Positions 3,238-15,390 of a stretch of 64,000 bases of DNA are shown here, in pieces (positions within the stretch are counted from its first letter, which is position 1; each line of letters opens with the position of its first letter). Source of the stretch: a virus; IMG/VR virus record IMGVR_UViG_3300037493_003260, positions 20,089-84,088 of that record; one strand, written 5' to 3'. The translations under genes and the position numbers were made by a program. Under the pieces are notes generated by a model, which was not told the origin of the DNA, did not search any database, and worked only from the letters and a program-made list of their open reading frames with translations.

Positions 3238-4074
3238 TTAGACCCTTATCCGTCGATAGGAAGCCAATGCCATCTTGGCTCCTTCTTGATAAGCTTTAAT
3301 ATGGCCTGCGTATGGCTGGTCTCCGTAGGACCGAGGAATTTGACCCAGTGTCAACGAGGTAGCCCCAGCTCCCATAAATTGTCCTTTGGTAGCCAAAACT
3401 GCTGCAGCTACAAACTGTGCGCAAGCACTCCGAATTTCTTGTGGAAGAGCCACTTGACTGGCATATCCATAATCGTAGGAGATTTCAATATTGCCGTAGC
3501 CTCGAAGCCATGTGTAATTCCAGAACGGAATCCCTTGATTTTCAAGATAAAGGATTCGTGGAGGAATCGACAGAATACCCAATCGACAATTGACAAATAA
3601 ATCAGATGATTCGTATTGTGTAGCACTTGCACTGAAAGTTCCTGTGGGAGTCACTCCAATTAAATCTGCGGGAACAGGTGACCCCGCTGCAAAAGTATAC
3701 GGGGGCAAAGAACTTGGGGTGAGCGGGGATACCCCACCGTATTCGCCCATTTTATTGCCAGTCTGGTCTATGTTATTGATATGAAACCAGCGTTTAAATT
3801 CAAACCACTGCATGGACGGAATGATACGCAAAACACATTTACGCACAAAGGAAATAGGTCGGTGATTCAAAATGAGTTCAACCGCACCAGAACCATCTAG
3901 ATGCTCGGTGACAGTTGTTGAGTCCAGGTTTTCGCCAATGTACGTATCCACTTGGCGTTTAGCCCACGGAATGTAATTTTGCTCAATCATAAGGTCCAGG
4001 GACGGAGGCATGTCACTAACGTCCATACCCGCGAGCCACTGGAATACTTCATTTTTTGTACAGTATTGAAACAT
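3238..4074 (-). CDS. Head-tail adaptor/connector protein
   Basis: Directly downstream of capsid gene; YCT..EV, VDTYIG, DG.G, YDYGY....LP.EIR.AC motifs typical of adaptors. Confidence 0.7.
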   Translation of the reverse strand: MFQYCTKNEVFQWLAGMDVSDMPPSLDLMIEQNYIPWAKRQVDTYIGENLDSTTVTEHLDGSGAVELILNHRPISFVRKCVLRIIPSMQWFEFKRWFHINNIDQTGNKMGEYGGVSPLTPSSLPPYTFAAGSPVPADLIGVTPTGTFSASATQYESSDLFVNCRLGILSIPPRILYLENQGIPFWNYTWLRGYGNIEISYDYGYASQVALPQEIRSACAQFVAAAVLATKGQFMGAGATSLTLGQIPRSYGDQPYAGHIKAYQEGAKMALASYRRIRV

Positions 4075-4127
4075 AGAATTGGGGGTCCTTAAACTTGGGT
4101 CTTTGGGATTATCTTACCTGATATACT

Positions 4128-4157
4128 ATTATAGCACGAATGGTAGGGGTTTGACAA
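4128..4157 (-). promoter_or_regulatory. Sigma70-type promoter
   Basis: TTGTCA-18 bp-TATAAT with TG extension. Confidence 0.7.
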
Positions 4158-4161
4158 CAGT

Positions 4162-4212
4162 AAAAAGTTGACTAGGTGCCCAAAGATTCCTACTTTGGGC
4201 ACCATTGTCAAT
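4162..4212 (-). terminator. Rho-independent terminator after major capsid gene
   Basis: ggtgcccaaag/ctttgggcacc stem, extended by ttgac/gtcaa, followed by a T-run on the minus strand. Confidence 0.75.
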
Positions 4213-4239
4213 TTTTGGACGATTACGATACCACAGCGG

Positions 4240-6426
4240 TTAGGCTGCGATATTGATAATCCTGCCTTGGAACGCTTCGCAGGTCATTTGAAGTACCGAG
4301 AATTCGGCAATCAAAGTCCTGTAAGCAGACTGAAGCAACGCAAGGTCGATAGCTGACAACGGCATGAGGTCAACCATCTGCACTGCGTTACCGTCTTCCA
4401 ACACTGTTTTGTCGTCGATGACGAGGGCAAAAGAATCACCATGAACGTCTTCCACAATATAGCGAGAGCCGATAATATCGACCAAGCCAAACGGGGAAAG
4501 CCATTTGGTAATACTGATACCAGCGGGAATATCCGCCATCGTACCAGCTCCTGCCTGGAACAGCTTGTAATAGCTGGACATCACCAGTTCGGAAATCTTC
4601 TGCAACTCACGATAACCAACAACAACAGCTTGAGGCTTCCCACCCTTGTTCACGATTTTCTTGCAAACTGCAGTTAAATCGGAAAGAGCTAAGGGCTGAT
4701 TAACGCCGCCAACTTTGCAGTCTTGAACGTTCGTCACAATCTGTTTGTTAAGACCATCGAACTGAAGCGGAGAGACCGAAGAATCGCCGTTGATAATGGC
4801 CCATTCTTCAATCAACGCTACGTTCAACATCTTGGTCTTAATTTGGTGCTTCTTAATATCCGTGTACGTCCCGCCAGCCATTTGTTCAAAGAACGAAACG
4901 GTAGCAAGGTCGCCCACACTGACATAAGGAGCCGATTTGTAAACGTAAGACGGCTGAGTAGCAGTCGGAAGCCCACCTTTGGCAAAAAAAGCATCCTCAG
5001 GGGCAGTTCCACCAAGGAACAGATGACCAGCAGACTGTGCGCCTGCGGAAATGGTCGGAATTAGCTGGTACCAAGCATGCACTAATGTTACGCAATCTTT
5101 CGATTGGGATTGCTATTTCTAGCAACCTCTCATAGTTACCTATGAGGTCGGACTATATCATCACTATACTAGTGTTCGGCGTGTAGTCTCTACGGATTCT
5201 ACTAGGTATTCTTAGTAGCCTTTCCTCGGTATTGTCCTTTGCAGGAGGTTCACCGATATAGCCAAATTTTACAAGGCCCATTGTGTTAAGCCTTGCCGTT
5301 CCCTTGAATCCGATTGAGTCGGTTTCGGAGCGGAGTGTCCGTTGGTGCCATAATCGCCCAAATAAGATTTCTCTTATGGGATTGTTACACTGTAAATTAG
5401 CCAGCGGTTAGGGCATTTCTGCCTAACTCTGCATGTCACCATGCAGTTCGGACTATATCTTCAATTTAAGATTCGTCATGCACTAGGTTTGCGAATGTTG
5501 TTAATTTGATTACTATATCCGCTAAGCCTTCTTAAATGTGTGGCGTTGAGTCTCTGAGGGAGTAAGTTGATACATTCATCTAAACGGTCTGATTTTCGTT
5601 TGATTGAAAATCGACACCCAGCTCTAATGAAAGAAGCTACGTTGAACCTGTAGTGGACAACTGGCTTAATACTACCTGCAAAGCCACCCTTACAGATTAA
5701 CGGTTTGGGCCAAACTGAAACTCCAAGGGAAGTTAAAAGCTTGTTGTATTGAGCAAGTAAATCTGTGTCTGTTGAACAATAGCCTATTTGATGTCTATAG
5801 GTATCAAAGTGCTTCTGTTTAGACTTGCTAATATAACCGTCTCCATCTATAAAGCCAGTGATTAACTTATGCTTTACAATTGGAAGTGCTTCCCAGGTTT
5901 CGTCTGGTAAAGATGACCCATTTTTCGTTGCCAGCAGTACCCATCGGCAGAGTTCGTCACACCGTACAAAAACGTTGTAAAGGAGCTTTCTAGTGCCCCG
6001 TTGCTGTTCAGAAATAGTAACCTTTCTGCCCAGTAATTTTTGTAAAGTAATTGCGACGGACTCAGCAAAGTCTTTATCGGTAACAGATAAACAAAATCTA
6101 TAACAGTTATCTTGTGTAAGATTAATGCATCCATCACTGAAATAAACACCTATGAGATATGCTGTGTTTGAGTCAAGTTTAAATTGTATCATTTTACCTT
6201 TCCTGCTGATTGTCTTCTATACTCTATTATACCATATTTTTACACTTTGGTAATGGTATATTTATCAGAAGATGTTCCAGCAAATAGCCACATTATGAGA
6301 CAGCGATTAACCTATCTCAGCTTGGAGGTCCTCACGAACCAACATCAAGCCGTCAACTGGAGTGGAACTAATAGCCTTCTGAATATCTTGAAGTGCTTGT
6401 TCTACGAGTTGAGCATTGTATGACAT
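4240..6426 (-). CDS. Major capsid protein (Twort/SPO1-like), three exons: 6314-6426, 5289-5358, 4240-5079; 340 aa spliced
   Basis: RBS aaggag upstream of ATG 6426. Joined frame MSYNAQ...VREDLQAEM-AIMAPTDTPLRNRLNRIQGNGKA-HAWYQL...; EEWAIINGD and FDGLNK motifs; follows protease/scaffold. Confidence 0.9.
5080..5288 (-). mobile_element. Group I intron 2 in capsid gene (209 nt, ORF-less)
   Basis: 5' exon CAAGGCU pairs with IGS GGCCUUG (terminal U.G); intron ends in G; core elements AGAGACUAC and GAUAUAGUC. Confidence 0.9.
5359..6313 (-). mobile_element. Group I intron 1 in capsid gene (955 nt) carrying a LAGLIDADG endonuclease
   Basis: P1 UGAGAU/GUCUCA; P10 UAAUCGCU/GGCGAUUA; terminal G; core elements UGCUGGAA, AAUCAGCAG, AGAGACUCAAC, AAGAUAUAGUC. 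Confidence 0.9.
5476..6192 (-). CDS. Intron-encoded double-motif LAGLIDADG homing endonuclease
   Basis: YLIGVYFSDG and LITGFIDGDG motifs; TGGTATAAT just upstream (6226-6234). Confidence 0.9.
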   Translation of the reverse strand: MIQFKLDSNTAYLIGVYFSDGCINLTQDNCYRFCLSVTDKDFAESVAITLQKLLGRKVTISEQQRGTRKLLYNVFVRCDELCRWVLLATKNGSSLPDETWEALPIVKHKLITGFIDGDGYISKSKQKHFDTYRHQIGYCSTDTDLLAQYNKLLTSLGVSVWPKPLICKGGFAGSIKPVVHYRFNVASFIRAGCRFSIKRKSDRLDECINLLPQRLNATHLRRLSGYSNQINNIRKPSA

Positions 6427-6464
6427 GTAAATAATCTCCTTTCTTTTAGTATTTTTTGGAGCAC

Positions 6465-7355
6465 TTACAGTGCTTTACCGAATTTTGAGTCCATGCTCTT
6501 ATTCAGAACATCTTCACGAACCTTCTCCTGCTCGGCAGTTAAAGGTTTGCCTGACTGCACCCACTTTAGCACTTCTGCTCGTTGATTCTGGAATTGGGAA
6601 TCATCGTTGTCGGTACTGTCCGCATTCTTCTCGATTATGCGCTTTCTAGGCATCGGCTTTTTCAAAAGCTCTGTTACCGCGTCGAAACGTTTTCTCAACG
6701 TCTCCAATTCATTCGTGACCTTTGTTAAGGATTCTTTTTCTTCCTTAGCATCAGCCAATTTCTTTGCTTCTAATTCAGCAAGTTCTCTTTTCTTCTTTTC
6801 TTCTTCTGTTTCAACGACTTCTTCTTTAGATTCAGCTGCTTCTTTAGCAGGTGTTTCAACAGCTTCCTCTTTTGGGTCTTCCTTCTTGGCCTCAATTGCA
6901 GCAGCCAATTCAGCAGGAATAGCCTTGACAACCTCGGTTGCTTCATGTGTCTTAGCCTCTGGCATCACTTCTGCAACAGCCTTTGGTGCTTCAGGAGCAC
7001 TCGGAGCAACAGCAGCAGCCTCTACGGGATTACTTGTAGCAGGTAGCACTGTTCCTGTTGGTGCTTCAGGCTGAATGCTTCCAACGCTTACTACAGGAGA
7101 TGCAACTACAGCAGATGCCTCAACAGCGGACGGCTTAACTTCTGGCGCATCAGTAATATTACCTGTTGCAGCCCCTGCCATGGCTTTTTCGGTAGAGCTT
7201 TCACCCAGCGCGGGTGTTGCACTTGCGTTCTCTGGAGTTGCTTTAGCCCCTGGAACAGGCCTATAAGCACCTTCAAAAGCTTTTTCAAGAGCTTCGACCT
7301 TCTTCACCAAAGTCTCGATTACTGCACTAAATTTAATCATATCTTCCGTCGTCAT
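6465..7355 (-). CDS. Nested in-frame scaffold protein (internal start)
   Basis: gaggagg RBS at ~7366-7372 upstream of in-frame ATG 7355 (MTTEDMIK). Confidence 0.65.
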   Translation of the reverse strand: MTTEDMIKFSAVIETLVKKVEALEKAFEGAYRPVPGAKATPENASATPALGESSTEKAMAGAATGNITDAPEVKPSAVEASAVVASPVVSVGSIQPEAPTGTVLPATSNPVEAAAVAPSAPEAPKAVAEVMPEAKTHEATEVVKAIPAELAAAIEAKKEDPKEEAVETPAKEAAESKEEVVETEEEKKKRELAELEAKKLADAKEEKESLTKVTNELETLRKRFDAVTELLKKPMPRKRIIEKNADSTDNDDSQFQNQRAEVLKWVQSGKPLTAEQEKVREDVLNKSMDSKFGKAL

Positions 7356-8207
7356 TTCGTTTATTCCTCCTCGGTTTGAAACGTTATGAGTTTGATAAGC
7401 AGTGCCAAGTATAGCTTGCGCCTTCTTGTGAACAGCCTCAACTTCATCTGGAGTTAAGTTATATTTCTCCATTATTGCCAGTGCCGTTACGGCATGGACC
7501 TTATCGGACATAGGAAGCAGACGCTCTTTGATAAGCATGTCGTCTTTCTTGTACTTGCGAATGACCCCATAGCTGGAGTCTGCAAGCTGGTCAAGTTCTT
7601 CCCTGTCCAAAACTTTTCTGGTTAAAGAATCCACTTTATCACGGTGGCTATGAATCTCAGCCATTAGCGGGTCCTCAGCCTCTGTAATAACAAGCCTATT
7701 AGAGTCCTCGACGATTGCCGTTTGAAACGGTACTCCGTCAATGGACTTAACCAACTCAAAAGAGCATCCAGCGTTTGCTGGATTGTCTACAAGGGACAAC
7801 TCATTCAAGCGGTATTTTGTGATACGGGTAACAGTGCGAGAACCGCCTGTTGCCAAGTCCTTTACAATCTGGACATTCTTGTGAACAGTCTGCCCACCAA
7901 TAGAAAATCCAGTCAGTGTTCCATCCTTGACTTTCTGCCAGGTGTCTTCTGCGCCCTTGGAAATGTAAGCTTCGACCCACATCTTTTTGCTGTCATCATC
8001 AGGAATAATTTCCACAGCTTTGCCAACGGCTTTGGGTTCATGCATCTCTCGGATGTTTTTGCCCCAATTGGAAAAAGCTTCCTTACTGCCAGCATAGTCA
8101 ACTATCTCGCCCTGCTTGTCCACAGATTCCGTGGTCGCCCATCCCGCCACAGTGCGCTTTTCCTCGTTTATTTTTGAAATCGGACAGTACAAATTAAAAT
8201 CATTCAT
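6465..8207 (-). CDS. Prohead maturation protease (HK97/S78-type) fused to scaffold
   Basis: RBS gaggagg before ATG 8207; VAGWA, REMH, GFSIGG, ELSLVDNPAN motifs; Ala/Glu/Pro-rich C-terminal half. Confidence 0.9.
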   Translation of the reverse strand: MNDFNLYCPISKINEEKRTVAGWATTESVDKQGEIVDYAGSKEAFSNWGKNIREMHEPKAVGKAVEIIPDDDSKKMWVEAYISKGAEDTWQKVKDGTLTGFSIGGQTVHKNVQIVKDLATGGSRTVTRITKYRLNELSLVDNPANAGCSFELVKSIDGVPFQTAIVEDSNRLVITEAEDPLMAEIHSHRDKVDSLTRKVLDREELDQLADSSYGVIRKYKKDDMLIKERLLPMSDKVHAVTALAIMEKYNLTPDEVEAVHKKAQAILGTAYQTHNVSNRGGINEMTTEDMIKFSAVIETLVKKVEALEKAFEGAYRPVPGAKATPENASATPALGESSTEKAMAGAATGNITDAPEVKPSAVEASAVVASPVVSVGSIQPEAPTGTVLPATSNPVEAAAVAPSAPEAPKAVAEVMPEAKTHEATEVVKAIPAELAAAIEAKKEDPKEEAVETPAKEAAESKEEVVETEEEKKKRELAELEAKKLADAKEEKESLTKVTNELETLRKRFDAVTELLKKPMPRKRIIEKNADSTDNDDSQFQNQRAEVLKWVQSGKPLTAEQEKVREDVLNKSMDSKFGKAL

Positions 8208-8241
8208 GCTAAGTTTCCTCCTCGGAATCTTTGTTTTATTT

Positions 8242-8523
8242 TTATTTACATCTACTGCAAAGCCATTTGCCATTTTGGTAAGTGGCCTTTGAAACTTGTT
8301 GATTGCATTTGTTACAGATGAGTGCTTTTTTCTCACCGATACCTGAGAAACCTGTAAGCCTCTCACCGTTATTCTTCAAATTTTTAAAGGCGTTGAACTT
8401 ACGAGAATCGTCAATTTTACAAGTAAACGCATCCCCGCTTTCGTGTTCAACAACAAATTCGTGAGAACCTGTTCGGGTCATGCTCTTGACTGTATGCCCG
8501 TCGTCTACTTTCTTTTTAGTCAT
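8242..8523 (-). CDS. Hypothetical protein with C-terminal zinc ribbon
   Basis: CNKC...CSRC. Confidence 0.55.
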   Translation of the reverse strand: MTKKKVDDGHTVKSMTRTGSHEFVVEHESGDAFTCKIDDSRKFNAFKNLKNNGERLTGFSGIGEKKALICNKCNQQVSKATYQNGKWLCSRCK

Positions 8524-15080: not shown

Positions 15081-15390
15081 CTTTCAAAATTTGGATAACA
15101 GTCCAGGTCACAGCTGCAAGGGCTGTGGCAACTTTTACAACACTTGATAAAAACTCAGATACACCTGTAGATTTCATAAACTTTGTTTCAACGGGTTGCA
15201 AACGAGCTTCTATGTGTGCGTGTTGTTCTTTGTTGTTTTCATCGAAGGTTGTCAGGGCTACCTTAATATCCTCTAAAGCGTGAGGCAGATGATTAGTCAC
15301 CTGGGTCTTGATGGAAGCAACGTCAGATTTCAAGTCCGACACTTCGGCCTTTACTGCATTTACTTCATCGTGCATTTCCTTGTATCCCAT
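15064..15390 (-). CDS. Coiled-coil protein with C-terminal TM helix (holin/haemolysin-like)
   Basis: Heptad N-terminus and hydrophobic C-terminal segment. Confidence 0.5.
   Translation of the reverse strand: MGYKEMHDEVNAVKAEVSDLKSDVASIKTQVTNHLPHALEDIKVALTTFDENNKEQHAHIEARLQPVETKFMKSTGVSEFLSSVVKVATALAAVTWTVIQILKVAKVF

Follow-up and report, generated by a model that had tools for sequence, protein, structure and literature searches.

Two group I introns divide the major capsid gene of an uncultured sediment phage

Introns in the capsid genes of phages have precedents. Mycobacteriophage LittleE carries a group I-type intron in its major capsid gene, and Tuc2009 is cited there as a further case (Pope et al. 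2013, PMC3706429). Among the crAss-like phages, the capsid open reading frame (ORF) of Delta and Zeta phages is interrupted by multiple group I introns that contain endonuclease domains, and one capsid gene is described as lying in five fragments (Yutin et al. 2021, PMC7886860). Here we analyse the major capsid gene in a window of 64,000 nt, comprising bases 20089-84088 of the 84,088-nt IMG/VR record IMGVR_UViG_3300037493_003260, which derives from an uncultured sediment phage and is estimated to be 80% complete. This gene is of the SU10 type, lies on the minus strand and consists of three exons (113, 70 and 840 nt) separated by two group I introns (955 and 209 nt) that are only 70 nt apart. 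The arrangement had been proposed in an earlier note made from the letters of this DNA, and our analysis confirms it with all of its coordinates and lengths. The premise of that note, that introns in capsid genes are unusual, is not supported, as such introns have been published for LittleE and the crAss-like phages and are common in this gene family. The arrangement is thus real but familiar in environmental phages, and its mechanism is canonical.

The published systems resemble the window to differing degrees. LittleE (PMC3706429) shares with it a U at the end of the exon, a G at the end of the intron, a LAGLIDADG-like ORF and a capsid protein that relies on efficient splicing, but it has one 819-bp intron, an ORF on the opposite strand and a capsid of an unrelated family, whereas the window holds two closely spaced introns and a co-oriented ORF that overlaps the ribozyme core. 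Splicing in LittleE was shown by reverse transcription PCR and N-terminal sequencing; in the window it is predicted from the sequence. The crAss-like phages are likewise uncultured, but they are gut Bacteroidetes phages with another capsid family, and in the main text passages of PMC7886860 their introns are recognised by protein domains, without mapping of splice junctions or ribozymes. Jug jumbo phages (PMC12880540) similarly carry ORF-less introns of ~206 nt alongside endonuclease-bearing introns that fragment essential genes, although these are gut phages of 360-402 kb and the genes named are terL, nrdD and DNA polymerase. An intron endonuclease that aids phage competition is also reported (PMC11620839). 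Our literature searches returned nothing on introns in capsid genes of the SU10/DUF5309 type, although the supplements of PMC12880540 and PMC7886860 may list capsid introns. The present locus adds to growing evidence that introns of uncultured phages preferentially target capsid genes. Outside capsid genes, Landthaler and Shub are said to have shown in 1999 self-splicing and exon skipping for orf142 of Staphylococcus phage Twort, which reportedly holds three group I introns; like the gene described here it is said to be a late gene that holds several small introns of this group, separated by short exons, and to differ from it in host, gene and intron subgroup.

Exons and splice junctions of the capsid gene

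Exon 1 (6426-6314), which follows a Shine-Dalgarno-like AAGGAG at 6441-6436, extends from Met1 into the Met38 codon, of which it contains the first two bases, exon 2 (5358-5289) runs from the third base of that codon to Ala61, and exon 3 (5079-4240) covers His62 to Ala340 and the stop codon. These and all other elements of the gene and its introns described below lie on the minus strand. The computed splice product has 340 aa and one terminal stop, and the single frame and the divided Met38 codon (AT|G) that had been predicted for it are both restored. The two junctions, GAGAT|GGCG and AAGGCT|CATGCT, are exactly those that uninterrupted homologues require, and alignment to intron-less homologues is gapless at both.

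A protein search with exon 3 found 151 relatives, of which the best 120 were listed, most of them 328-345 aa long, and the capsid relatives that we gathered comprised 88 loci, reduced to 58 distinct ones (hereafter L denotes related loci, P database proteins and X1-X4 sets of metagenome DNA contigs). The spliced product is identical to the uninterrupted metagenomic protein P0003 at 326 of 340 positions, and the first 70 residues, which take in exons 1 and 2 and cross both junctions, are identical at 70 of 70 positions without a gap. Over the same 70 residues, ten further full-length homologues show 54-69 identities. Exon 3 alone matched PF17236 (SU10_MCP/DUF5309) at 51.2 bits over profile positions 102-291. 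Because this match starts only at position 102, some 100 N-terminal profile positions are missing from the ORF that was called in this region. P0003 matched the same profile at 62.4 bits over positions 11-288 (residues 31-335), a range that covers both junction positions. When compared with solved structures, the capsid profile matched one chain, 9vel_C, and tblastn of exon 3 found no match in 50,697 cultured-phage records.

A search of the whole record with P0003 returned the three exon pieces only and no second capsid gene, the record being about 80% complete. As the earlier note had argued, production of the capsid protein from the one capsid gene in the record would require the removal of both introns. 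The locus would then offer a clean example, with verified junctions, of the most abundant virion protein relying on two ribozymes. Gene callers read it differently: they report exon 3 as a protein of 280 aa (P0001) that begins at a GTG at 5082, formed by the last three bases of intron 2. Public protein sets annotate this capsid gene wrongly, along with those of at least a fifth of the phage's relatives, either as the truncated 280-aa protein or as fragments, and such entries distort capsid phylogenies and virus detection.

Two ribozymes of one compact family

Both introns possess the conserved core P3-P9 with the P3/P7 pseudoknot; all helices could be located, and they pair. Each intron has a U.G pair at its 5' splice site and ends in G. 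The Rfam model RF00028, for which the gathering score is 50 bits, matched these two introns and nothing else in the 84-kb record at E <= 0.001. The match to intron 2 (5288-5080) spans the full length of the model at 65.9 bits (E 1.7e-14 for the whole window), and this intron is 209 nt long and free of any ORF, as had been noticed. Its P1 joins 5295-5289 to 5278-5272 in 7 bp (CAAGGCU/GGCCUUG, with the U.G at the cut). Downstream lie P3 (5266-5261 with 5180-5175), P4 (about 5257-5252 with 5230-5225), P5 (5247-5234), P6/P6a (5225-5194), P7 (5188-5184 with 5155-5151), P8 (5174-5162), P9 (5146-5129), P9.1 (5126-5109) and P9.2 (5106-5093), and the omega-G is base 5080. The minimum free energy fold of the intron contains P1, P3-P6a, P9, P9.1 and P9.2, and the expected pairing is also found for P7 and P8. 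Within exon 2, Rfam took a hairpin (5330-5306; CCGA..UCGG) for the first helix of its model when aligning intron 2; the true P1 lies at 5295-5272.

Intron 1 (6313-5359) has a 6-bp P1 between 6319-6314 and 6301-6296 (UGAGAU/GUCUCA, again with the U.G at the cut), and its P10 guide at 6308-6302 pairs over 7 bp with 5358-5352 in exon 2. The remaining elements are P3 (6292-6287 with 5544-5539, 6 bp), P4 (6282-6278 with 6208-6204, 5 bp), an extended P5 (6273-6267 with 6218-6212), P7 (about 5552-5549 with 5454-5451), P8 (5537-5530 with 5471-5464), P9 (5446-5429), P9.1 (5427-5407), an extra 3' hairpin (5378-5362) and the omega-G at 5359. RF00028 matched the 3' part of this intron (44.6 bits, E 1e-9 to 1e-11). 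For alignment, the part of intron 1 that is ORF only was deleted by script and the remainder was added to the family alignment. In this form the intron is colinear with the family, with P3, P4 and P5 upstream of the ORF (6292-6204) and P6' to P9.1 downstream of it, which places the ORF in L6, the loop of P6. Rfam itself had set P1-P6 at 5701-5570, inside the ORF; we rejected this placement as an alignment artefact, given that the ORF-deleted alignment yields perfect P3 and P4. The P7-P9.1 segment of intron 1 is common to many other introns in these sediment samples, and contig depth peaks at 5365-5463 (reaching 122 in X2), where there are also many loose ends and joints to 5174-5180.

The ORF of intron 1 (6192-5476) encodes 238 aa and is identified by its motifs as a LAGLIDADG homing endonuclease. 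It matched PF14528 in two stretches at 52.3 bits (cut-off 22.5), and both LAGLIDADG motifs (S19-D20-G21, and F114 to I121) are invariant in comparison with three homologues. It is 29-34% identical to the ORFs of introns inserted at D33|L34 of related capsid genes, a site 13 nt upstream (residue numbers of insertion sites are those of the window's spliced capsid protein). An RBS-like (ribosome-binding site) AGGAAAGG at 6204-6197 precedes the ORF and overlaps P4'. The overlap of its 3' end with the ribozyme core, described previously, amounts to the last ~87 nt (5562-5476), which coincide with P6', J6/7, the 5' strand of P7, P3' and the 5' strand of P8, and the stop codon falls in the P8 loop. 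With the RBS over P4' and the tail of the ORF over P6' to P8, translation of the endonuclease and folding of the ribozyme are likely to be mutually exclusive in any one RNA molecule. The P5 extension of intron 1 also contains a sigma-70-like site (6253-6226; TTACCA, 16 nt, TATAAT with TG; 10/12). The start codon of the endonuclease follows 34 nt downstream; going by its match to the consensus, the site may be a promoter of the ORF's own.

Members of the ribozyme family were also found elsewhere. Viral contigs were scanned for a 24-base motif from the core of intron 2, which was present in 27 of them (L091-L117). When intron 2 and 12 relatives without an ORF were aligned (A4, 13 sequences) and analysed for covariation with RNAalifold, 25 of 40 predicted pairs were kept through changes on both sides, mainly in P3, P8, P9 and P9.1. 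P4 and P5 are invariant in these 13 sequences, and P7 is invariant too, which makes it uninformative on covariation; four of the 40 predicted pairs (columns 123-133) form a spurious hairpin over J6/7 and P7. Between intron 2 and the introns of L087 and L088, P3, P6 and P6a covary. One may speculate further, though we doubt that the whole of this conjecture will stand, that a single compact ribozyme family, to which both introns belong, has specialised in the major capsid genes of environmental phages, where it takes up about 13 sites of this SU10-type gene (as many as six inserts, with micro-exons of 17-25 nt, in one allele) and is also present in capsid genes from at least four unrelated PHROG families. 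Capsid genes rather than DNA-metabolism genes would then be a principal home of group I introns in uncultured phages, the intron endonucleases would serve as weapons that cut the capsid gene of co-infecting relatives, and ORF-less copies such as intron 2 would hitch-hike on neighbouring endonucleases.

Splicing, mobility and rival readings

We consider it highly probable (roughly 0.88) that the single SU10-type capsid gene of this ~84-kb phage holds two independent mobile group I introns that belong to one compact, P2-less ribozyme family. Following late transcription, the two ribozymes would fold, each binding its own 5' splice site through P1. Each intron would then be released by two guanosine-dependent transesterifications ending at its omega-G, and ligation of the exons would yield the messenger RNA for the 340-aa capsid protein. 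Phage introns use in-frame stops just inside the intron to keep ribosomes off the core. Unspliced reading into intron 1 gives Ile and Gly and then a UAA stop, whereas intron 2 opens with an in-frame UAA, so that unspliced reading ends at its first codon; these stops, placed right after each 5' splice site, would bar ribosomes from the two ribozymes.

Intron 1 would constitute a complete homing unit: its endonuclease presumably cuts intron-less alleles of co-infecting relatives near AT|G, and the intron would be copied into the cut allele by repair. Intron 2 appears to be an ORF-less member of the same family, and the ORF that its same-site relatives carry downstream of P3' is HNH-like. Most likely, intron 2 is either a derivative of such an intron that has lost its ORF or the ORF-free ancestral form, and it could be maintained because precise splicing would make it nearly neutral.

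The occurrence of the two introns in related loci bears on their independence. L055, which begins inside an intron with the site 1 acceptor of the window, has no intron 2, while L087 and L088 have an intron exactly at site 2 and none at site 1; among the loci seen, both introns occur together only in the window. The intron of L087 and L088 aligns with intron 2 over the 5' half of the latter (alignment A2; mean column identity of the three sequences 81%) and shows compensatory changes, and blastn matched it at 68-70% to bases 9-109 of intron 2. In L088 the ORF of this intron follows P3', and its N-terminus is identical at 36 of 84 columns (43%) to the HNH ORF of L061; the L088 ORF has no Pfam hit of its own because it is truncated by the contig end. 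The locus is also polymorphic for intron 2 among metagenome DNA contigs. In X4 a joint from 5080 to 5305 removes the intron; it replaces 15 letters, has a depth of 24 and leaves 54 letters on the shorter side. A joint from 5079 to 5289 in X2 removes exactly 209 nt, with just 21 letters on the shorter side. In record 14 of X2, the last 550 nt of intron 1 are present at 94% identity, followed by a jump over 272 nt. By arithmetic, 748-610-75 = 63 letters lie between the two sides, which equals the 13 + 50 nt expected if intron 2 is missing; this record probably has intron 1 and lacks intron 2. These natural intron-plus and intron-minus alleles, together with an ORF-plus and ORF-less pair of introns at one site, provide material for study of the homing cycle.

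In place of independent movement, the earlier note had suggested that the mini-intron spreads with the help of its neighbour. Intron 2 would then owe its movement chiefly to co-conversion, set off when the LAGLIDADG enzyme encoded by intron 1 cleaves an intron-less allele 70 nt away, and this would be a kind of collaborative homing. In cyanophage psbA genes, an ORF-less intron is mobilised by a free-standing endonuclease encoded next to it; here the candidate helper would reside in the neighbouring intron, with a different target site 70 nt away, and the relatives show no linkage. Co-conversion across 70 nt would be mechanistically possible. Co-conversion tracts in phage crosses are long compared with this distance, and intron 2 has no ORF of its own. 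Synonymous variants in the flanks, moreover, go along with the introns, as flank co-conversion would predict: intron-bearing alleles read GAG AT|G GCG and AAG GCT|, which fit the guide sequences, whereas intron-less alleles read GAA AT|G GCT and either AAA GCA or AAA GCG, in which the guide fit is absent. We nevertheless regard this route as an unlikely main one for intron 2. Each site is occupied alone in some relatives and, among the loci seen, the pair is confined to the window, the same-site relatives of intron 2 have an ORF of their own, and the X2 allele at 94% identity probably combines intron 1 with an empty site 2. In this small sample, which speaks to distribution only, the ORF-less intron does not appear to be found and inherited with its neighbour, and the dependence attributed to it is not borne out by L055, by L087 and L088, or by the DNA alleles that lack intron 2.

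Several points weigh against the reading of two independent, mobile and self-splicing introns. Among the sequencing runs searched, no RNA run holding the stretch was listed, which is evidence neither way on splicing; for this reason splicing is something that we infer. In its native context intron 1 scores below the Rfam gathering score, a shortfall explained by the inability of RF00028 to bridge the 640 nt of ORF in L6, which leads it to misplace the 5' helices. The P10 of intron 2 has just 3 bp, so that, of the P1/P10 pairing originally claimed for both splice sites, P1 stands at both and a substantial P10 only at intron 1. The 238-aa ORF found no sequence match among solved structures, and its cleavage activity is a prediction. 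Three sequences do not decide whether the ORF of intron 2 was lost or never gained, and the reading of X2 record 14 is one of arithmetic, its intervening letters being unread.

It is very improbable that the gene is a dead, insertion-riddled pseudogene, or that it functions without splicing, through the 280-aa protein that starts at the GTG at 5082, even though this is the only ORF that gene callers predict and no RNA run was listed for the stretch. In silico, the upstream exons are under purifying selection. Compared with the intron-less allele L003, exons 1 and 2 differ at 21 of 183 nt; of the codon differences, 18 are synonymous and 1 is non-synonymous. For codons 62-160 the corresponding counts are 19 and 4. 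Many columns of the N-terminal 61 residues are invariant across the capsid family, the ribozyme cores and guide pairings of both introns are intact, no Shine-Dalgarno-like sequence was found ahead of the GTG, and another gene to supply the capsid is absent from the ~80% complete record.

Still harder to credit is an assembly artefact, in which the inserts would be chimeric joins of unrelated metagenomic DNA: the intron core at 5365-5455 is multi-copy in these metagenomes, as its depth peak and loose ends indicate, and such repeats are prone to mis-joins, but the inserts stand exactly at codon-restoring positions with matching guide sequences, a 7467-nt Logan contig of X1 spans 4000-6700 with 0 differences (not an independent witness, since X1 is possibly the source sample), X3, from another sample and study, has identical pieces within intron 1 and exon 1, and X2 has pieces of intron 1 at 94-98% identity. 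Readings of the inserts as inteins, frameshifts or bypassed segments were rejected, as they have stops in all relevant frames and are ribozymes.

Interrupted capsid genes in related loci

Among the 58 distinct loci, the interrupted class was assigned by hand: 31 loci hold an uninterrupted full gene, 15 are contig-end fragments in which no interruption was seen and at least 12 are interrupted. Junction mapping gave about 13 insertion sites. In the N-terminal part of the protein these are D33|L34 (L021, L004), within L34 (L077, and L064 at or within this codon, the border not being exact), E37/M38 (the window, L055), A42|P43 (L077), G59|K60 (L061), A61|H62 (the window, L087, L088), within W64 (L060, L077) and within Y65 (L081). 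Further along are A129|G130 (L077), about M145 (L011), E153/W154 (L081), G291|N292 (L076) and within V297 (L076). A search of 14 interrupted loci with Rfam, for which E <= 0.01 was applied to relatives, gave 19 matches, one of them above the gathering score. The intron ORFs in the interrupted loci are of LAGLIDADG, HNH or DUF559 type.

When L077:2063-6189 is joined with L076, to which it is identical over 4014 nt, the result is a capsid gene with seven exons (98, 25, 64, 197, 471, 17 and 133 nt) and six inserts (686, 840, 223, 646, 711 and 687 nt), five of which contain LAGLIDADG or HNH ORFs. The joined exons give a stop-free capsid protein of 334 aa (255/340 identical). By protein alignment, inserts 4 and 5 of this gene and the insert L064:726-1630 end in A (in L064, A or T), and for these three we found no alternative border with a terminal G that restores the conserved residues. 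Among the database proteins, P0081 (466 aa), P0038 and P0097 consist of a capsid fragment fused to an HNH domain, or have the N-terminus up to residue 65 replaced by unrelated sequence; these are likely gene calls that read through further introns.

Upstream of the capsid gene in the window lies a protease-scaffold gene (6465-8366; PHROG head maturation protease). Downstream of it, a terminator scan called none, although a hairpin at 4203-4175 with a T-run seven bases downstream can be seen by eye.

The surroundings of the core-motif loci were tested in 16 of the 27 cases, mostly by one flanking ORF. The neighbour is a 'major head protein' in seven of them, with four PHROG families represented (10, 1357, 2522 and 1328), a share open to bias, as virus detection favours capsid-bearing contigs. 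In two others it is the unknown phrog_13692 and in two more an HNH ORF, while the remaining five yielded no hit. In cultured phages, blastn of intron 2 found only three partial matches (17-26% of the query), all in N4-like Vibrio phages. These matches correspond to the P7-P9 part of intron 2 at 81-91% over 35-54 nt. As in Vibrio phage pVco-7 (L118, record 15306-15359), they fall between two genes for hypothetical proteins, in a gap that has no annotation, and the same region contains RNA polymerase genes split by an endonuclease VII gene; this is probably an unannotated intron.

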